Assembly (NCBI GenBank): GCA_007376145.1 | Contig: VMFP01000003.1 | Coordinates: 92,741 to 156,740, forward strand | Reading direction: 5' to 3' | Length of the DNA stretch: 64,000 bases | Origin: Parcubacteria group bacterium Gr01-1014_38 | GTDB taxonomy: Bacteria; Patescibacteriota; Andersenbacteria; UBA10190; CAIZMI01 | Shown here: one piece after another, positions 30,811 to 39,092 of the stretch | Layout of the letters: each line of letters opens with the position of its first letter | Numbering within the stretch: position 1 is the stretch's first letter | Made by a program: the position numbers and the translations under genes | Notes under the pieces: generated by a model | What the model saw: only the letters and a program-made list of their open reading frames with translations | Database searches by the model: none | Told to the model about the DNA's origin: nothing

Positions 30811-32328
30811 ATGTCTGTGCCCCTCTCTGTGCGTCCAGTACGTCGCGGTCTTCCAGCAGCCGAAGTCATTACCGTATTTTCCGACGGGAAGACGTTCTCG
30901 CTTCCGGAAGCGGCGGCCCGCCCCGTTAGAAGCCGGGCTTCTAACGGGGCCCGCGTCGCCCGCGAACACCTCCAGCGGGCGGCGTTCAAGGGCGAGGCGC
31001 ACGAAACGCACGCGCTCCCGCTGCCCGGACGGACGGCCCGAACGCTCTTTATTGTTGGAACCGGCAAGGCCCTGACGCTCGACGTGATCCGCCGGGGCGT
31101 TGCCGCTGCCGTCCAGCACGCAAAGGCGGAAGGGCTGCGAACGGTCTCCATCATTGCGCCATTCGCGGCTGTGTTTGGCTCCGAGCTCGGTCGAGCATTT
31201 GCCGAAGGCGCCTTGCTCGCCAACTACCGCTTTACTGCGTACTCCGCCGAGACTGCGAAGCGGGAAAAGCGCCTGGCATTGCAGCGCGTCGAACTGCTAG
31301 TGCCGCCGCAAGAACGGAAGGCCGTCGAAGAAGGCGTGCAGCGCGGGACGATTGACGCCAGCGCGACAATGCTCGCGCGCGATCTCGTGAACGAGCCGGC
31401 TTCGCGCATGACGCCGCAGTCTCTCGTTGAAGAGGCGCAGAAGATCGCGAAAGCCTCACGAGGCGCGATCGAGCTGACCATCTTGGACCGCGCGCAGTGC
31501 GCCGAGCGCGGCATGGGCGCGTTCCTTGCAGTGGCACAAGGCTCAACCGCCGAACCGGCATTTCTCCACGTGGTCTATCGGCCGGCGCCAAAGCTTCCCA
31601 TCGTCGCGCTCGTCGGGAAGGGCATCACCTTCGATTCCGGCGGCTTGAGCTTAAAGCCCGCGGACGGCATGGAAACCATGAAGATCGACATGGCGGGGGC
31701 GGCCTCGGTTCTCGGCGTGTTCTCCGCGCTGCCGAAGCTGAAGTTTCCGATCGAAGTCCACGGCTTCATTGCCGCGTGCGAAAATATGCCGTCGGGATCT
31801 GCCGTAAAGCCGGGGGATATTGTCCGCACCGCATCCGGCAAAACCGTGGAGATTCTGAATACGGACGCGGAGGGACGCCTCACGCTCGCCGACGCCATAG
31901 CCGAAGCGCGCAAGGTTCGCCCGCAGGTCATTCTGGACCTGGCGACACTCACCGGCGCTTGCGTCGTTGCGCTTGGTGAAGAAGTCACCGGTCTCTTTAG
32001 CAATGACGAAGCGACCGCCGGAAAAGTGTTGCGGGCGGCGGAATCCGCGGGCGAGTACGTTTGGCGTCTTCCCTTGATTCCGGAATACCGCTCCAATCTC
32101 AAAAGCTCGGTCGCCGACATGAAAAACATCACGGGCAAGCGGTGGGGTGGAGCCATTACCGCCGCGCTCTTCCTCAAGGAATTTATCGGCAACACGCCGT
32201 GGGCGCACCTCGACATCGCGGGGCCCAGTTACGCCGAGAAGCAAACGCACCCCGCTATCCCCGTCGGCGGCACCGGCGTCGGCGTCCGCACCGTCCTCCG
32301 CTACCTCGAATCGCTGCCCACAAGATAG
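30811..32328 (+). CDS. pepA: Leucyl aminopeptidase (M17, PepA)
   Basis: M17 catalytic domain motifs (NLVNEPASRMTP, VGKGITFDSGGLSLKP, NTDAEGRLTLADAI, MKIDMAGAASV) with N-terminal domain; contains an in-frame palindromic insert at 30920..30950. Confidence 0.85.
   Translation: MSVPLSVRPVRRGLPAAEVITVFSDGKTFSLPEAAARPVRSRASNGARVAREHLQRAAFKGEAHETHALPLPGRTARTLFIVGTGKALTLDVIRRGVAAAVQHAKAEGLRTVSIIAPFAAVFGSELGRAFAEGALLANYRFTAYSAETAKREKRLALQRVELLVPPQERKAVEEGVQRGTIDASATMLARDLVNEPASRMTPQSLVEEAQKIAKASRGAIELTILDRAQCAERGMGAFLAVAQGSTAEPAFLHVVYRPAPKLPIVALVGKGITFDSGGLSLKPADGMETMKIDMAGAASVLGVFSALPKLKFPIEVHGFIAACENMPSGSAVKPGDIVRTASGKTVEILNTDAEGRLTLADAIAEARKVRPQVILDLATLTGACVVALGEEVTGLFSNDEATAGKVLRAAESAGEYVWRLPLIPEYRSNLKSSVADMKNITGKRWGGAITAALFLKEFIGNTPWAHLDIAGPSYAEKQTHPAIPVGGTGVGVRTVLRYLESLPTR
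30920..30950. repeat. Palindromic element copy 2 (14-bp stem, loop CGG; same 13-bp core), in frame within pepA N-terminal domain
   Basis: GCCCCGTTAGAAGC-CGG-GCTTCTAACGGGGC; translated in frame as RPVRSRASNGA within the PepA N-domain. Confidence 0.8.
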
Positions 32329-32376
32329 TTTTGAGTCCGATACGGGGACGATCTGCAGTTGATTCGGTACACTCCT

Positions 32377-33699
32377 ATGAACCAAGAAGGGAACGAGCAA
32401 GGAAACAAAGCTCAGCAATCTGGTACTGACGAGCTTCGCCGACAAATAACAGAAGCGGAATCGTCTTTGAGTGACATCAAAAACAAAATAGAGGAAATTC
32501 AGAAGTATTATCAGCAATTTCAGGAGCTCAAAAGCAAAATTGACGATGGGACCGTTGGCCTGAATGCCGTTTTTAAGTTTTCTCAAGACAAGAAAACCGA
32601 GCTTGAGCAGCTTTCGGCAACTGCCAACGAGAAGTTAGCAGCTATTACCCAAGCACTTGAGCGCGTTCAACAACATACTGACGAAATCAATAGAGCATAC
32701 GAAGCGTTTCAAGCAAGCCGAGACAAAGTGAATGATCCAGGAAGTGGGTTACAAGCGGTTTTGGGACAAGCTCAAAACCTTCGTGATAATGTTGCAGAAT
32801 TTAAAGCAAAGGCGGAGCAAGTATTTGAGCAAATCCAAACACAATTAAACCAAGTTCGAGACAGCACTTCCAGGATGGAAGAAGCGTATAGACAGTTTGA
32901 AGTTACTAAACAACAAATTGATGATCCAAATAGCGGTTTAGGGGCGTTACTGCAGACAGCTTCTGATTTAAGAGCCAAGATTCAGGAGGCGCAGAAATCC
33001 GCTAGTAATACGCTCGTGGAGATACAAACACTTCATGAGAACGCGAAACAAGTACTTGGCTCTACCACGGATATTAGGAATAGGATGGATGTGCTGGAAA
33101 AAGAGAGCGTGAGCTTGAAAGAAAGCATCGCCCAGATATTATCTTTGGTAACCGATAGCAGTTTAGACGATGCCTTTAAAAGGCGTAGTCAAGCGGTTCG
33201 CGATGAAACAAAGGAGTGGCGCAGGCGCCTTGAGTGGAGCATTGGACTTTTAGTTTTTGCGATAATTTTAATATACATTCTGCAATCACTGGCACCGAAC
33301 GGTTGGCAGAATTGGAAACATTGGTATCGCTATTTGTTTACCTCGCCACTTATTTTTGCTGTCATTTTCTACACAAGGCAATATACGCTTACTCGTTCTT
33401 ACGCCGAGAAATACGCTTTTAAGTCAGTTGTGGCCACAACATTGACTTCTTATGTGAAGCTTTTAAACGATAGGTTCCCGGAGCGAAAGGATGAGTTACT
33501 GGACTTTACACTAAAGACAACAGATTTGATTTACGAGCGTCCGTTTGTCGAGAAAGACACACGGCGCAAAGCACATCTATCGCTCTTCAATATTTTCCGG
33601 GGCAAGTTGGAGCTTGACGAGAAGACGACAGCAAAGATTGCCAGCAGGATAGGCCATAAGAAACCAGAGTTGGAAGCGAGCGGAGACACTCAGGAATAA
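32377..33699 (+). CDS. Repeat-containing coiled-coil protein with C-terminal 2-TM module (AT-rich island)
   Basis: Three about 55-aa helical repeats sharing [YF]xxF...D[DP]xSGLxA[LV]; two TM helices (IGLLVFAIILIYILQSLAP, YLFTSPLIFAVIFYTRQY) then about 110-aa tail; GC much lower than flanks; ATG 32377 preferred over TTG 32359. Confidence 0.6.
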   Translation: MNQEGNEQGNKAQQSGTDELRRQITEAESSLSDIKNKIEEIQKYYQQFQELKSKIDDGTVGLNAVFKFSQDKKTELEQLSATANEKLAAITQALERVQQHTDEINRAYEAFQASRDKVNDPGSGLQAVLGQAQNLRDNVAEFKAKAEQVFEQIQTQLNQVRDSTSRMEEAYRQFEVTKQQIDDPNSGLGALLQTASDLRAKIQEAQKSASNTLVEIQTLHENAKQVLGSTTDIRNRMDVLEKESVSLKESIAQILSLVTDSSLDDAFKRRSQAVRDETKEWRRRLEWSIGLLVFAIILIYILQSLAPNGWQNWKHWYRYLFTSPLIFAVIFYTRQYTLTRSYAEKYAFKSVVATTLTSYVKLLNDRFPERKDELLDFTLKTTDLIYERPFVEKDTRRKAHLSLFNIFRGKLELDEKTTAKIASRIGHKKPELEASGDTQE

Positions 33700-33843
33700 T
33701 CCCCTTAGGTAGTTTCCCATACTACGTTCGGCGATGGCGATGCTTCTCTTCGGAAAGTTCGTACGGAGCTCAATTGGGGGTTGTTTTAGACGGTCACAGC
33801 GGCTATCCTAAACTTGTTCTGTGAATGAAAAATAGACTGCCAA

Positions 33844-34647
33844 ATGGTTATAGCAGTTAAGCAAAGAATAAAGTCCAGAATCGCAAACGAAGCGGAAACG
33901 CGTAGGTTTCCGGGGGACTTTGTTAATAAAATTGTCTGTGGTGACGTCCTCGAGATTATGAAAAAAATCCCGAATGGAGCTGTAGATTTGATTGTGACTT
34001 CTCCCCCATACAACATTAAGAACTCAACAGGTAATGGTCTAAAGGACGGGCGTGGCGGAAAATGGGCGAACGCAAGTTTGCAAAAGGGATATGCGAACTA
34101 TGACGACTGTATGCCGCACGAAGAATATGTGAAGTGGCAAAGAGAATGCATAACCGAAATGTTACGTATTATCCCGGAAGACGGTGCAATTTTCTACAAC
34201 CACAAATGGCGTGTACAAGGCGGCTTATTGCAGGATCGTGAAGATATTGTTGGTGGCTTTCCTATTCGCCAGATTATTATCTGGAAGCGTAAAGGTGGAT
34301 TCAATTTCAATCCCGGCTATTTCTTGCCGACGTACGAGGTTATCTATCTGATTGCGAAACCGAAGTTCAAGCTTACGCCAAAAGCGAATGCTCACGGTGA
34401 TGTGTGGGAATTTACACAGGAGATGAACAATGATCATCCGGCTGCATTTCCATTGAATCTGATAGATCGAATCATTTCTTCAACAAGCGCAAAGATCGTT
34501 CTTGATCCATTCATGGGTTCTGGCACAACAGCAATTTCTGCTCTTAATTTTGACAGAGATTACATCGGAATTGATATTTCGCCTGAATATTGCGAGATAG
34601 CACGAAAAAGAATTGAGAACTACCGGTCCCAAAGTAGGTTCCTCTAA
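33844..34647 (+). CDS. Type II DNA methyltransferase, beta-class, likely N4-cytosine (SPPY motif IV, DPFMGSGTT motif I)
   Basis: Motif IV IVTSPPYNI precedes motif I VLDPFMGSGTTAISA (beta-class order); SPPY favours m4C specificity; directly upstream of the REase gene. Confidence 0.85.
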   Translation: MVIAVKQRIKSRIANEAETRRFPGDFVNKIVCGDVLEIMKKIPNGAVDLIVTSPPYNIKNSTGNGLKDGRGGKWANASLQKGYANYDDCMPHEEYVKWQRECITEMLRIIPEDGAIFYNHKWRVQGGLLQDREDIVGGFPIRQIIIWKRKGGFNFNPGYFLPTYEVIYLIAKPKFKLTPKANAHGDVWEFTQEMNNDHPAAFPLNLIDRIISSTSAKIVLDPFMGSGTTAISALNFDRDYIGIDISPEYCEIARKRIENYRSQSRFL

Positions 34648-34650
34648 CCA

Positions 34651-35448
34651 ATGCCAAAACAGCCAATTGTTTATACCAAGCAGGCATTGGTAGAAAAACT
34701 TAAGGAAATTGCTGCTGCAGACTGGATTCCAAATGCGCGGCGAGGGAATCAAGGAGGCGTTGGAAATACGCTTGAGGATTTGCTTGGACTTGAAGAGAAC
34801 AATTTACCATTGCCGAATGCTGGAGAATGGGAATTGAAAGTACAAAGGCTAAATTCAACTGCTCTTTGTACGCTCTTTCATATTGAACCTTCGCCTCGCG
34901 CTATTCGTTTTGTGCCACAAGTTCTTTTACCGAAATATGGCTGGGCGCACGGGGAGGACGGTAAGAGGTATGCAAAGGGCGAGATGAGCTTCAGACAAAC
35001 TATCCACGGTCTTGCTCGAAGCGATCGAGGGTTCATGGTGAAAATTGACCGCGAGGAAAGGAAAGTCTTGATTTCATTTGATGCCAAAAGCGTGGATGTA
35101 CGGCATAAAGACTGGCTTGGGTCTGTACAAAAGCGCGCTGGTCTTGGGGAACTCAACCCGCAACCATATTGGGGCTTTGATGATTTAGAACATAAAGCCG
35201 GAACAAAATTATCCAATGCTTTTTATGTTCAAGCTGAGGTTAAAACTGTACGAGGAAAGGAACACTACAAATACAGCAAAGTTATGATGCTTCAGAAGTT
35301 TAGTTTTAGGGGATTTTTAGAGGCGATTGAGGAAGCCAAAATTCTTGTGGATTTTGATGCACGCACAGGGCATAACCATGGAACAAAATTCAGAATGCGG
35401 CAGGACTGCTTGCCGATGTTATACGAAAGAAAAACTGTAGTTCTCTAA
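34651..35448 (+). CDS. Type II restriction endonuclease, MvaI/BcnI family (CCWGG/CCSGG-type monomeric REase)
   Basis: Recalled resemblance to BcnI/MvaI (GNTLEDLLGLEENNLPLPNAGEWELKV...TLFHIEP; C-terminal LVDFDARTGHNHGTKFRM); 3 nt downstream of the MTase gene; AT-rich. Confidence 0.65.
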   Translation: MPKQPIVYTKQALVEKLKEIAAADWIPNARRGNQGGVGNTLEDLLGLEENNLPLPNAGEWELKVQRLNSTALCTLFHIEPSPRAIRFVPQVLLPKYGWAHGEDGKRYAKGEMSFRQTIHGLARSDRGFMVKIDREERKVLISFDAKSVDVRHKDWLGSVQKRAGLGELNPQPYWGFDDLEHKAGTKLSNAFYVQAEVKTVRGKEHYKYSKVMMLQKFSFRGFLEAIEEAKILVDFDARTGHNHGTKFRMRQDCLPMLYERKTVVL

Positions 35449-35528
35449 TCTTTGACCAAGGCGGAGAGCAAAGTCGAAGAAAAAAATAGGAAGCCCGGGA
35501 CGGATGGTTTTGGACGAGGTCTTTTGTT

Positions 35529-36515
35529 TTAGCTCTTCTGGATCTCCACGACGACTTTTCCGCGGGGGTGGCCGGCTTGGAGATAGGTGAGCGCTGCTCC
35601 GGCCTGCTCTAACGGGAACGTCTTGTCCAGGCGTACCTTGATGACTCCTTGCTCCACCAATTCCGCGAGTTTCGAAAGGCGCTCGGTGGTGACCTGGGTG
35701 AATTGCGAGATCGCGGTCACGCCGTATTGCTGCATGAGTTCTGCGTTTGGTTGCTCCACCATCGAGACGATGACGCCGCCTTTCCGCAAGACCTTGAAGG
35801 ATCGCGCGTAGGTTTCACCGCCGACCGTGTCAAATACGGCGTCGTAGTCATGGAGGAGATCTTCGAACTTTTGTGTTTTGTAGTCAATGACCTGATCTGC
35901 GCCCAGGTCTTTGACATACTGTGCATCATCCGCGCTGGCCGTGGCCGCCACGGTGGCGCCCAGGTGCTTCGCGAGTTGGATTGCGAAGGAGCCGATGCCG
36001 CCCGCGCCGCCATGGATGAGAATGGTTTGCTTGCCCGTCGAAGCTGTAGCGGAGGCGGGGCCCTTCCCGAGCTGTATGTGTTCCGTGAGTGCCTGCAGAG
36101 CGCTGACGCCTGCGAGTGGCAGGGCAGCGGCCTCCGTGTGGCTGACGTTCTTCGACTTCCGGGCAACGGCTGTTGGGTTAGCGGAGAGGAACTCCGCGAA
36201 GGATCCCGACCCGCCGCCCAGAACGCTTGCTTGCCCGTAGACTTCGTCGCCCTTCGTGAAGCCAGACACGCCGTCGCCCACGTCCATGACGATACCCGAA
36301 AAGTCACCTCCCAGCGTTACAGGGAACTGCAACGGGGCCATCTGCTGCATATAGCCTTCGCGGATTTTCCAGTCGATGGGATTCACACCGGCCGCGTGAA
36401 CCTCGATGAGAAGATGTCCTTGAGACACCGTTGGCGTAGGCGCGTTTTCGTTGATCTCGACAACCTCACCGCCTCCGTAGCGGTTGATTTGTGCTGCTTT
36501 CATTGTGTTCTTCAT
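35529..36515 (-). CDS. Zinc-type alcohol dehydrogenase / NADPH:quinone oxidoreductase (MDR superfamily)
   Basis: GroES-like N-domain and Rossmann ILIHGGAGGIGSFAIQLAKHLGATV. Confidence 0.85.
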   Translation of the reverse strand: MKNTMKAAQINRYGGGEVVEINENAPTPTVSQGHLLIEVHAAGVNPIDWKIREGYMQQMAPLQFPVTLGGDFSGIVMDVGDGVSGFTKGDEVYGQASVLGGGSGSFAEFLSANPTAVARKSKNVSHTEAAALPLAGVSALQALTEHIQLGKGPASATASTGKQTILIHGGAGGIGSFAIQLAKHLGATVAATASADDAQYVKDLGADQVIDYKTQKFEDLLHDYDAVFDTVGGETYARSFKVLRKGGVIVSMVEQPNAELMQQYGVTAISQFTQVTTERLSKLAELVEQGVIKVRLDKTFPLEQAGAALTYLQAGHPRGKVVVEIQKS

Positions 36516-36536
36516 GGTTTCGTGATGGTTAAAGGT

Positions 36537-37157
36537 TTAAAAACCGAGTTTTTCTCCAACGAGGACCATGGTGATTCTCCCGGGTTGAACTTCGCGGTTG
36601 ACAATGAGGATCTTGTTCACCGAACTGCCGGGGACGCCATACGCTTTCTTCGCACGCTCGCTTTCCAGTGGCAGAGCGTACGCGTAAATTCTCCGCATTC
36701 CCTCATCGAGATTTTTTACGAGTTTCTGAGCGCCAACGACCCAGATGATGTTGCCAGCACCAAAGGCATAGGCGGGAAGCTGACTACCCGTGTTGGACGC
36801 GATCAGGACTTCTCCTCGTTCAGTTACCGCATGGACACTTCCCAGCACATAGTCGGGAGCAGCACCGAGTTTTCGCATTTCGCGCCCTTCTTTGGTCCGG
36901 TCCATACTCATGAGCTTTCGGCGAACAGAGTCATATTTTCCCGATTCATTGACTTCTTTGGGTATGCCGATCGTCTCCAGCGTAACTGAAGTCATCGTCA
37001 TCACTTCAGCACCCTCCGGCAAAAGCTCGAACACTTTCTTTTTCGCTTCCGCGCCGCTTGCCACAAAGTGTGCTTCGATACCGTTCTGCTTGAGAGCAGC
37101 CAGCGCACGTTCCATGGTCTCCTTTGAAGCCAACATTGAAAAGTTCGTTGCAGTCAT
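36537..37157 (-). CDS. LUD domain protein (LutC/YkgG-like)
   Basis: LUD-domain pattern (GAEVMTMTSVTLETIGI, VLIASNTGSQLP, NIIWVVGAQKLV, LIVNRE); 21 nt downstream of qor-like gene. Confidence 0.7.
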   Translation of the reverse strand: MTATNFSMLASKETMERALAALKQNGIEAHFVASGAEAKKKVFELLPEGAEVMTMTSVTLETIGIPKEVNESGKYDSVRRKLMSMDRTKEGREMRKLGAAPDYVLGSVHAVTERGEVLIASNTGSQLPAYAFGAGNIIWVVGAQKLVKNLDEGMRRIYAYALPLESERAKKAYGVPGSSVNKILIVNREVQPGRITMVLVGEKLGF

Positions 37158-37173
37158 CGTTAGAGTGCTCTGG

Positions 37174-37434
37174 TTATTGTCGTTTTGTTCTGTCCAGAAT
37201 GTCCCGGATCGCGTCCAACCGTCGTGAGAGGTGCGTCGCGAAACGCTCGACGTTCGAGAGTTTGGTAAAGACGAGCATGTCGCATTCTTTCCCCAACCCT
37301 TTTCCGAAGACGAGGAGCTTCTCGCCCTTCTCCACGCTCATGGCTTCCCGAGCCTCCGCGGGAATCACCACTTGCCCTTTCTCCCCGACCGTGGTCGTGC
37401 CAAAGAAGCTCTGGTCCTTGTGTCCCTTTGTCAT
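37174..37434 (-). CDS. AbrB/MazE/SpoVT family DNA-binding protein
   Basis: Swapped-hairpin motif GEKGQVVIPAEAREAMSVEKGEKLLVF. Confidence 0.7.
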   Translation of the reverse strand: MTKGHKDQSFFGTTTVGEKGQVVIPAEAREAMSVEKGEKLLVFGKGLGKECDMLVFTKLSNVERFATHLSRRLDAIRDILDRTKRQ

Positions 37435-37543
37435 GTGGTGCGGAAAATCTTACAAGTTGCAAAGGTATGAATCCAATATACCACTCGTTCCGCGTCTGTC
37501 AAGGGGAAGGAGATTCCCACGCGGGAGCGTTTCCTGATACCCT

Positions 37544-38290
37544 ATGAGCATGACGGCACTCGACGTGCACCACCTCACGGTGAAGCTTGGCGGGCGCACG
37601 ATTGTCGATGATATTTCCCTGTCGGTGGAAGAAGGGGAGACGGTTGCGCTCATTGGGCCGAACGGCGCGGGAAAGAGCGTGCTCGTGAAAACTATCCTTC
37701 GGCTCTTGCCGAAAACCTCAGGCGAGGTGCGCATTTTTGGTACGCCGCACGAGAACTACGCGAAGGTCGCGCCGATGGTTTCTTACGTGCCGCAATTTAT
37801 TTCCGTGGAGCGGACGTTCCCGCTCACTGTGGAGGAACTCTTTGCCTTAAAGAGCGGGAGCGATCCGAAGCGGCGGGTGCATTGCCTGGAGATCGTCGGC
37901 GCGCAGGGCCTCGAGCGACAGCGCTTGGGGACGCTCTCGGGCGGACAGCTTCAGCGAATTTTCCTTGCCTTTGCGCTCGTGGATCGCCCCCGCATTCTGT
38001 TTCTCGACGAGCCGAGTTCCGGCATCGACATCGGCGGGGAAGAAACCATCTACAACCTCATCCGCCGCGTGAGCGCCGAGGAGAAGATGACCGTCGTGCT
38101 CATCTCGCACGACATCGACATCGTCGCGGGGTTTGCGCAGCACGTGTTCTGCGTTAACCGCCAGCTGCTCTGCTCCGGGCCGCCGGCGGCGGTGCTCACC
38201 GAAGAAACGCTCCGTCGCGCCTACGGCCCGCACGTCGGCATTTACCCGCACCACCCCGAGCCGCATCATCCCGCGCACCCCGATGTCTGA
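37544..38290 (+). CDS. Metal (Zn/Mn) ABC transporter ATP-binding protein with His-rich C-terminal tail
   Basis: Walker A GPNGAGKS, signature LSGGQLQRIFLA, Walker B ILFLDEPSSGID; tail HVGIYPHHPEPHHPAHPDV. Confidence 0.85.
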   Translation: MSMTALDVHHLTVKLGGRTIVDDISLSVEEGETVALIGPNGAGKSVLVKTILRLLPKTSGEVRIFGTPHENYAKVAPMVSYVPQFISVERTFPLTVEELFALKSGSDPKRRVHCLEIVGAQGLERQRLGTLSGGQLQRIFLAFALVDRPRILFLDEPSSGIDIGGEETIYNLIRRVSAEEKMTVVLISHDIDIVAGFAQHVFCVNRQLLCSGPPAAVLTEETLRRAYGPHVGIYPHHPEPHHPAHPDV

Positions 38291-39092
38291 ATTTCTCGAG
38301 CTCCTCAGTTTGCCCTTTGCGCAACGCGCCATCGCTGCGGGGATTGCGATTGCCGTGGTCAGCGGCGTGCTCGGCGTCTTCATTGTCCTTCGCGGGATGG
38401 CCTTTTTCTCCGATGCCATCGCGCATGCCTCGCTGCTCGGCGTAGGGCTTGCACTCTTGTTTACCGCTCCGCCACTCGTGGGCGCGCTCCTGCTGGCGGT
38501 CGTGGCCGCGGTGGTCATTGCCACTCTCCGCGGTCGAACAGTGTTGTCGCTCGATACCCTCATCGGCGTCTTTTTCTCCGCGGCGGTGGCGCTCGGCGTT
38601 ATCACCATCGGATTCTTGAAAGGCTACCGGGCCGACTTGCTGGCCTTCTTGTTCGGCGATGTTCTGGCGCTTGGTCCGCTCGACGTGGTGCTCGCATGGG
38701 TGCTTTCTGTGGTCGTCCTCATCGCGCTGTTTTTCTCCTGGCGGGCCGTCGTCTTGAGCACGTTACACCGTGACCTCGCGGCAGTGGAGGGGGTCCCGGT
38801 CGTGCGCACGGATCTGCTGTTCTTGGTTCTCGTCGCGCTCGTCGTGGCGGTTGCCATCCGCATCGTGGGTGTCATTTTGGTGACGGCGCTCCTCATTGTG
38901 CCCGCGGCGACTGCCCAGAACCTTGCCCGGAACTTCCAGGCGATGGTGGCGTGGTCCGTTGGGGTGAGCGTGGTGTCCTTGTTCGGCGGCCTGGCGCTCT
39001 CCTTTGCGACGAATTTGCCCAGCGGACCCACGATTGTCGTGGTCGCGTCCGCGCTGTTTCTTCTTTCTCTCGTCGCACGGCCAACGCGGTAA
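38283..39092 (+). CDS. Metal ABC transporter permease (ZnuB/MntB-like)
   Basis: 8-nt overlap with the ATPase gene; 8 TM helices; ABC-3 family pattern (FFSDAIAHASLLGVG). Confidence 0.85.
   Translation: MSEFLELLSLPFAQRAIAAGIAIAVVSGVLGVFIVLRGMAFFSDAIAHASLLGVGLALLFTAPPLVGALLLAVVAAVVIATLRGRTVLSLDTLIGVFFSAAVALGVITIGFLKGYRADLLAFLFGDVLALGPLDVVLAWVLSVVVLIALFFSWRAVVLSTLHRDLAAVEGVPVVRTDLLFLVLVALVVAVAIRIVGVILVTALLIVPAATAQNLARNFQAMVAWSVGVSVVSLFGGLALSFATNLPSGPTIVVVASALFLLSLVARPTR

Follow-up and report, generated by a model that had tools for sequence, protein, structure and literature searches.

A 64-kb stretch of DNA on contig VMFP01000003.1 (the window, i.e. the whole stretch that was analyzed) carries a low-GC cassette between pepA and a convergent gene for a Zn-dependent quinone oxidoreductase, and three co-oriented open reading frames (ORFs) fill this cassette (Table 1). 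The first ORF, here called gene A, encodes a coiled-coil protein with two predicted transmembrane (TM) helices, and it is followed by the genes of a DNA methyltransferase and a type II restriction endonuclease, which form a restriction-modification (R-M) pair. An initial annotation of the window had described the region as an AT-rich foreign island with three genes in this arrangement, and the ORF list and the base composition agreed with it. The GC content calculated per 500 nt was 0.60-0.65 until approximately position 32000, 0.43-0.45 over 32500-35500 and 0.57-0.62 beyond 35500, and the mean was 0.439 for the island compared to 0.597 for the whole window.

The foreign origin was further supported by an empty site in a related metagenomic contig (L058, 34.7 kb) with an oxidoreductase homologue that is 86% identical. 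The gene order of L058 (ABC transporter, oxidoreductase, convergent pepA, a 137-aa gene and a metallo-beta-lactamase-fold gene) is that of the window, the one difference being the distance of only 161 bp between pepA and the oxidoreductase gene. In a BLASTN comparison of the two sequences (~84% DNA identity) homology stopped at 32334, 6 bases beyond the pepA stop, and restarted at 35529, the oxidoreductase stop. Since the convergent genes of L058 are divided by just this short spacer, the 3194 bp in the window are an insertion, and DNA of 44% GC stands in the place of a short spacer in a 62%-GC genome. No terminal repeat of at least 8 nt, direct or inverted, and no target-site duplication was seen at the island ends, no integrase or recombinase was found, and a promoter and terminator scan of the island performed no better than on shuffled sequence. 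Considering the insertion and the R-M pair jointly, we are confident that a 3.2-kb defence cassette entered this high-GC Parcubacteria genome by horizontal transfer, in the gap that separates two convergent housekeeping genes. A protein identical to the gene A product is recorded from 'Parcubacteria group bacterium Gr01-1014_38'.

Table 1. Features of the cassette and its flanks (positions in the window), and loci elsewhere that hold homologues of gene A ([A])
Feature	Position or locus	Strand	Basis or remarks
Low-GC inserted cassette	32335..35528		3194 bp; GC profile and BLASTN synteny break
pepA, left flank	30811..32328		Peptidase_M17 Pfam match, 7e-125
Zn-dependent quinone oxidoreductase, right flank, convergent	35529..36515	-	Pfam-confirmed
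Gene A, coiled-coil and 2-TM protein	32377..33699	+	440 aa and stop from ATG; alternative TTG start at 32359
N-terminal cytoplasmic coiled-coil region (predicted)	32383..33147	+	residues 3-257; AlphaFold2 helices, repeat alignment
Two-helix membrane hairpin (predicted)	33232..33384	+	TM1 286-305, loop APNGWQNWKH, TM2 313-336
Conserved post-membrane cytoplasmic segment (predicted)	33385..33546	+	residues 337-390; invariant columns in alignments A1, A2 and A3
Spacer between gene A and methyltransferase gene	33700..33843	+	144 bp
Beta-class DNA methyltransferase	33844..34647	+	267 aa; PF01555, PADLOC MTase_II PDLC03305
MvaI/BcnI(NciI)-family type II endonuclease	34651..35448	+	265 aa; PF15515, PADLOC REase_II
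hsdS-[A]-hsdR loci	L002-8, L011, L014, L019, L020, L024, L025, L029, L030, L032, L035, L039, L055-57
hsdR-Fic-[A]-fused hsdMS	L037
HNH, Dcm and Vsr genes	L001		convergent with A, here the nearest relative of the window protein (59% identity)
Endonuclease convergent with LexA-fused N6_N4 methyltransferase	L015, L027, L033		endonuclease BglII-like, TaqI-like and HNH, respectively; methyltransferase divergent from A
PLD-DpnI_C enzyme	L018		upstream of A
GmrSD-HNH enzyme	L050		directly downstream of A
brxC-pglX-[A]-pglZ-brxL	24 Acinetobacter plasmids		4-nt overlaps on both sides; A annotated 'hypothetical protein'

The methyltransferase is a member of PF01555 (N6_N4_Mtase; 1.1e-41, 143.7 bits against a cut-off of 26.7) and matches the PADLOC family listed in Table 1 at 1.9e-123. 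Its translation reads in the motif order of the beta class, with motif IV (TSPPY, residues 52-56) before motif I (DPFMGSGTT, near residue 220). The only near-full-length solved relatives were 8s9n/8s9m, named 'DNA cytosine-N4 methyltransferase' (2.6e-34, residues 22-262 of 267), and the match to solved adenine enzymes was confined to the C-terminal ~70 residues. The SPPY motif together with the near-full-length matches to solved N4-cytosine enzymes favours N4-methylcytosine (m4C) as the product, and the enzyme probably forms this base.

The endonuclease gene starts 3 nt after the methyltransferase stop. Its product belongs to PF15515 (MvaI_BcnI; 1.6e-61, 208.6 bits, cut-off 25, covering positions 2-227 of the 227 in the profile) and matches REase_II of PADLOC at 6.7e-79, so that for both enzymes the Pfam scores far exceed the curated cut-offs and the class assignments of the initial annotation hold. 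The protein aligned end to end with R.MvaI (3e-16) and in the N-terminal third only with R.BcnI (8e-6). In the HMMER alignment its GEWELK lies opposite GEFELK of BcnI and DIEIK of MvaI, a segment that presumably holds the catalytic residues (MutH-like, acidic residue and E-x-K). The pair is like the MvaI/BcnI/NciI type IIP systems, which combine a monomeric MutH-like endonuclease with an m4C methyltransferase, in the whole-domain Pfam match and the end-to-end R.MvaI alignment, in the E-x-E-x-K segment shared with BcnI, in the beta-class SPPY methyltransferase and in the adjacent co-oriented genes.

The initial annotation had called the pair CCWGG/CCSGG-type, of which the family stands and the recognition site is a candidate only, as E-values of only 3e-16 and 8e-6 do not allow the central W/S (or other) site to be read. 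One endonuclease homologue is called nciI by one source, and NciI cuts CCSGG. Neither CCWGG nor CCSGG was depleted in the window (observed/expected 0.99 and 0.92), which fits a recent arrival of the pair. Site avoidance does not distinguish between the two. In the same counts CTSAG was depleted across the window, with 32 sites observed and 76 expected under a maximal-order Markov model. This ratio (0.42) was the lowest among all N2-[W/S]-N2 palindromes and may have been left behind by a different and older restriction system of this genome.

More than 6600 homologues of the endonuclease were found at E<=1e-20, and the top hundred were 78-85% identical and came from many phyla of the candidate phyla radiation (CPR). 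The spacer upstream of the methyltransferase gene holds no controller gene of the helix-turn-helix (HTH) type and no excess of sigma-70-like promoters or terminators, whereas the nearest homologous R-M loci (L060, L061) have a small HTH gene upstream of the methyltransferase gene. Taken together, the R-M pair is an ordinary, conventional type II system, of a lineage that has spread through many CPR phyla and is ~80% identical across them.

Gene A and its family

The gene A product, a 100% match to P0001, is nearly all helical and has no signal peptide, and the initial description of a 2-TM coiled-coil protein is in line with what we found. An AlphaFold2 model from a 76-sequence alignment had an overall pLDDT (predicted local distance difference test) of 78.8, with 86-97 for residues 200-390. 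Helices were predicted at residues 3-54, 62-118 and 125-181, followed by a fourth at 188-305. The turns between them carry the motif [DN][DG]xxxG[LM]xA at residues 56, 119 and 182, i.e. three repeats with an exact period of 63 residues, and the same period is present in distant homologues. In the homologue P0004 the turn motif is identical (NNGESGLSA) in repeats 1 and 2, and in P0003 and P0004 the aligned stretches around it are near-identical, which we read as a sign of recent duplication.

A Kyte-Doolittle scan gave one strongly hydrophobic segment, TM1, which is continuous with the fourth helix. TM2 (~313-336) is less hydrophobic and was seen from the sequence and from an AlphaFold2 helix at 313-366; it contains an invariant TSP (P324). 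The loop between the two is 7-10 residues long. Stretches rich in K and R on both sides of the hairpin suggest, by the positive-inside rule, an N-in/C-in topology with both termini in the cytoplasm. Conservation is unevenly distributed, as mean pairwise identity was lowest in the coiled coil (0.32-0.38), intermediate in the hairpin (0.48) and highest in the segment just after it (0.54). The latter has the signature R340, E-K-Y346-A-F348-K349, Y359-x-K-L-L and Y386..P389. Residues W281, P324, Y346 and K349 were found in 44-45 of 46 collected homologues and were invariant across 76 diverse representatives.

A word-indexed search with gene A returned 12 relatives only. An exhaustive search with a hidden Markov model (HMM), built on the C-terminal 200 residues of nine family members, retrieved 1797 clusters at E<=1e-3, of which 733 reached E<=1e-10. 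Members are typically 300-460 aa long with the conserved domain at the C-terminus. Outside the coiled coil no Pfam family matched the isolated C-terminal domain of nine members (E<=5) or 76 full-length members (E<=1e-3). In NCBIfam the window protein and the 76 members gave matches of the SMC/Rad50/SpiroCoCo coiled-coil type only, far under the curated cut-offs. In PADLOC v2.0.0 the window protein matched LmuB, JetC, ZorA, DruC and PbeC, all within residues 6-291 (the coiled coil and the pre-membrane helix), and the same families recurred across the 76 members, for which match positions are listed for the first member only. One of the 76 weakly matched the PADLOC candidate PDC-S37 (9.7e-5). 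As far as these libraries and the papers cited below show, the family is large and unnamed, and an undescribed variant of the theme of the embedded accessory defence gene.

Several existing names were considered and rejected. ATG17_like reached 43.7 bits for the 440-aa form (cut-off 43) and 39.9 bits for the 446-aa form, in the coiled coil only, and the other Pfam, NCBIfam and PADLOC labels (SMC/Rad50, LmuB/JetC, SpiroCoCo) were regarded as coiled-coil noise. The NCBI name 'methyl-accepting chemotaxis sensory transducer', under which P0001 is recorded, was likewise taken as a coiled-coil artefact, as MCPsignal and HAMP were unmatched in Pfam and NCBIfam and the outward loop is ~10 residues. 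'Nuclease with TOPRIM domain', a name from IMG, was rejected as an artefact as well.

On two family-bearing metagenome contigs (L039 and L043) the ORFs were very short under genetic code 11, and the gene A homologue became an ORF of 440-442 aa once TGA was read as sense (table 25). This suggests that these hosts recode TGA, as is the case in Gracilibacteria/Absconditabacteria.

Gene neighbourhoods and partner swapping

Loci with gene A homologues were gathered from exact-protein look-ups, a scan of GTDB species, a metagenome scan with a 12-sequence alignment, and plasmids. The neighbours were annotated by precomputed Pfam matches, tblastn with known subunits and Pfam scans. When the proteins were clustered at 65% identity we obtained 34 lineages, seven of them at contig edges and 27 informative. 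An R-M, BREX or DNA-methyltransferase gene was a neighbour in 19 of the 27 (binomial P = 3e-19 against an assumed background of 5%), and none was found in the other eight. The GC difference, the two enzyme families and the co-localization with defence genes, on which the initial annotation had let its reading depend, were thus all present.

The adjacent partners span at least eight unrelated restriction enzyme families (Table 1), including type IV enzymes and five type II enzymes that are unrelated to one another. In at least ten lineages the homologue lies inside a type I operon, in the order hsdM-(x)-hsdS-[A]-hsdR-YgjP, with gaps of 3-18 nt or a 4-nt overlap. The hosts of this arrangement are Patescibacteria, Peribacteria, two bins labelled 'Gammaproteobacteria' and the source of L039, with its fragmented table-11 ORFs and possible recoding. 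The Acinetobacter plasmids that carry the gene inside a BREX operon include the GR13 type, e.g. p3ABAYE. On the GR13 plasmid NC_010404.1 the homologue is ABAYE_RS00370 (WP_001030448.1).

Two kinds of side observation were made in these loci. Between hsdM and hsdS there is in several of the type I operons a conserved gene for ~230-240 aa for which no Pfam family is recorded (L002:2966-3685, L005:2940-3629, L011:5421-6134), and RhuM, DUF3800, PemK or Fic genes fill other slots; the type I operons with gene A are multi-slot carriers of accessory genes. In L015:8318-9919 (-) and L027:8133-9653 (-) the N6_N4 methyltransferase forms a single ORF with two fused domains, the DNA-binding domain of LexA and a self-cleaving S24 peptidase, and L033:1036-2397 (-) holds a homologous ORF of 453 aa, known by tblastn only. 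These fusions suggest damage-responsive control of the R-M system. No conserved operator was seen in the divergent promoter regions of the three loci, only short AT-rich palindromes, and SOS control is a speculation.

The proteins and their partners occur in varying combinations. One cluster of A proteins with >65% identity had type I partners in two loci and a TaqI-type II partner in another, and the window protein and its closest relative have unrelated type II partners. The two closest inspected copies of the R-M pair of the window (endonuclease 82-83% identical) were without gene A. The linkage of gene A and R-M systems is therefore modular in both directions. Since the closest R-M copies do not have it and since it partners many unrelated systems, gene A is no required third subunit of the pair; it is swappable, and probably an accessory of methylation-based defence in general. 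This refines two earlier suggestions. Gene A had been proposed as a third, possibly defensive component travelling with the R-M system; it is a recurrent neighbour in defence loci and is not tied to this particular system. The cassette had also been put forward as an undescribed system variant, which can be kept for the unnamed gene A family but not for the ordinary R-M pair with its exchangeable accessory. Directly after the nearest endonucleases (4-12 nt) we observed a Schlafen/AlbA_2 gene (L059:2475-3416) or a gene for a 643-aa AAA_15/AAA_21 ATPase (L061:5843-7774).

Possible role of gene A in defence

Embedded defence genes, e.g. PrrC, DarTG2, PARIS and BrxU, are known to occupy the hsdS-hsdR and pglX-pglZ gaps, and 'guilt by embedding' has been used earlier to nominate defence candidates (PMC12255303; bioRxiv 10.1101/2024.01.29.577857; PMC12707154). 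From its gene neighbourhoods it is fairly likely that gene A has a defence role too, as a modular second-line accessory, and the protein probably acts at the membrane. Possibly, the variable coiled-coil region would sense a cue associated with infection, which may be a protein of the phage, or restriction that has failed or that the phage has inhibited. Oligomers of the conserved 2-TM domain would then compromise the membrane and abort the infection. The logic would be like that of PrrC, PARIS or DarTG, which are embedded at the same operon positions, except that the effector would act on the membrane. The division into sensor and effector is drawn from the finding that the only conserved module is the membrane hairpin with its short tail, while the cytoplasmic repeats are variable and duplicating. 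Of the mechanisms considered we favour this membrane-disrupting, abortive one, but tentatively, as it could well be wrong. Taking the insertion, the R-M pair, the defence role and the abortive mechanism together, we lean slightly towards the account as a whole. A wider version, in which the W...TSP...EKYAFK 2-TM/coiled-coil family is an unrecognized, widespread membrane-permeabilizing fail-safe that type I, II and IV systems and BREX can each take up as a module and that kills or arrests the cell when these are evaded or inhibited, is unlikely as it stands, although it would be of wide reach.

Several observations weigh against a defensive, abortive gene A. The protein has no homology to any characterized effector, fold searches gave long helical bundles of a generic kind (BAR domains, designed bundles, EzrA), none of them a Foldseek match at E<=1e-3, and no relatives were found in IMG/VR or in GenBank phages, so there is no viral copy that hints at counter-defence. 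It is also hard to name one trigger that type I, II and IV systems and BREX would all share. The window copy is not embedded but lies upstream of the R-M pair across the spacer. Among the informative lineages, L009, L013, L036, L038, L042, L052, L053 and L022 have no R-M neighbour; L009 is a serine-recombinase island, L013 has NUDIX neighbours and L036 NYN/YchF. In L022, on a 1.2-Mb contig, housekeeping genes surround a distant member, which has an MscS channel gene on one side and panB on the other, so that specificity for defence may not extend to the whole superfamily. In addition, the sampled loci are those reachable with two conserved peptide patterns and mostly CPR metagenome bins, and the background rate used for the binomial test was assumed, not measured.

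By position, the closest functional analogues of gene A appear to be the anticodon nucleases PrrC and RloC. Homologues of gene A hold the same hsdS-hsdR slot in the same orientation and with minimal spacing, whereas the window copy precedes a type II pair, and the proposed logic would be the same, a back-up that fires once restriction is neutralized (PMC12707154). There is no sequence or domain relationship, as PrrC is a soluble ABC-ATPase/nuclease and gene A encodes a coiled-coil membrane protein with neither an NTPase nor a nuclease match; unlike PrrC and RloC, gene A is also found beside type II and type IV systems and BREX. BrxU, PARIS, DarTG2 and the PADLOC 'phage defence candidates' show the same embedding, as a single same-strand gene in pglX-pglZ or hsdS-hsdR (PMC12255303; bioRxiv 10.1101/2024.01.29.577857), but gene A is not detectably part of any PADLOC v2.0.0 model. 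With the 2-TM suicide effectors of SLATT, CBASS and retrons it shares the design of a conserved short hairpin and a larger cytoplasmic part, although SLATT and the other effector families of Pfam matched neither the nine isolated domains nor the 76 full-length members at the thresholds given above. ZorA of Zorya has a membrane part and a long helical tail. The likeness to it is loose; the order is reversed in gene A (coiled coil first, hairpin last), and the matches to ZorA, LmuB and JetC (E 1e-4 to 1e-8) fall in the coiled coil only.

Other functions can be considered for a membrane protein in such loci. Gene A could be a non-abortive defence that blocks the entry or establishment of foreign DNA at the membrane, similar to superinfection exclusion, with R-M and BREX loci as mere recombination hot spots. 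A membrane location with an N-in/C-in hairpin would suit this, the lineages without an R-M neighbour speak for autonomy, and many embedded systems, e.g. BrxU, are independent of their host operon (bioRxiv 10.1101/2024.01.29.577857; PMC12707154). On the other hand, ~280 of the 440 residues form a cytoplasmic coiled coil and ~10 face outward, which is odd for a surface blocker. The tight, co-translation-like spacing with hsdS/hsdR and pglX/pglZ also hints that the co-location is not just passive. Prophages are the typical carriers of known exclusion proteins, whereas no viral copy of A was found, and we consider an entry barrier unlikely.

Even more doubtful is a non-defence role as a scaffold for the membrane or for envelope stress (an EzrA-, PspA- or BAR-like bundle on an anchor) that hitch-hikes with R-M genes as island cargo. 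The best structural matches are indeed membrane-shaping BAR/F-BAR bundles and EzrA, but they are under significance and typical of any long helical protein. The member beside the MscS channel gene and the other informative lineages without R-M neighbours would fit a scaffold. Hitch-hiking fails, however, to explain both the same-strand insertion inside operons, with the short gaps and overlaps described above, that is seen for type I systems from several phyla as well as for BREX, and the 19 lineages that adjoin so many unrelated enzyme families.

The least probable of the three is a physical helper that tethers or regulates restriction enzymes at the membrane (at DNA entry sites, or moderating self-restriction after acquisition): the operon positions do imply stoichiometric co-expression with HsdS/HsdR or PglX/PglZ, and in three loci a divergent promoter region is shared with the LexA-fused methyltransferase, but the partners have no structural relationship to one another (type I, MvaI/BcnI, HNH, BglII, TaqI, PLD, GmrSD, BREX), a diversity that weighs more against this alternative than against the other two, similar A proteins pair with different system types, so that a specific protein-protein interface is unlikely, and the same R-M core occurs without A in most genomes (>6600 endonuclease homologues vs. 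12 close A homologues).

A second-line membrane accessory would be of interest in these hosts, since a large part of bacterial diversity falls in the CPR/Patescibacteria, in which very few defence systems have been identified (PMC12366544). Accessory genes on the abundant CPR R-M systems could explain part of this missing immunity, and the family reaches cultivable, clinically relevant hosts through the Acinetobacter BREX plasmids. If gene A is a membrane effector coupled to methylation-based defence, the guardian concept would be extended beyond its nuclease and ATPase examples (PrrC/RloC, PARIS), and ~1800 clusters that are now unannotated or misnamed would receive a name and a model. If the fail-safe version is true, the family would be the first R-M guardian to act at the membrane, and the CPR bacteria, which are poor in defence systems, would have in it a major component of their defence. 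LdgA and DdgA are Patescibacteria-restricted defence genes of unknown fold from a functional selection (PMC12366544); they are a possible match to the gene A family, which we raise as a lead and not as a claim.

Other features around the cassette

A second stretch without counterpart in L058 was found at 36508-37528 (GC ~0.51-0.53), where L058 has 74 bp. It holds genes for a LUD-domain protein (36537..37157, minus strand) and for an ORF of 86 aa (37174..37434, minus strand), which looks AbrB/SpoVT-like from a reading of its sequence. As L058 has no counterpart of this stretch either, two separate insertions are seen in the neighbourhood from pepA to the ABC transporter. For the quinone oxidoreductase itself, many of the named best homologues below ~81% identity (65-70%) were from archaeal Candidatus Methanoperedens bins, which hints at an inter-domain transfer of this flanking gene. 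Further downstream, at 38250-39000, the AT skew falls to approximately -0.5 over ~750 nt, with T far above A in the plus strand.

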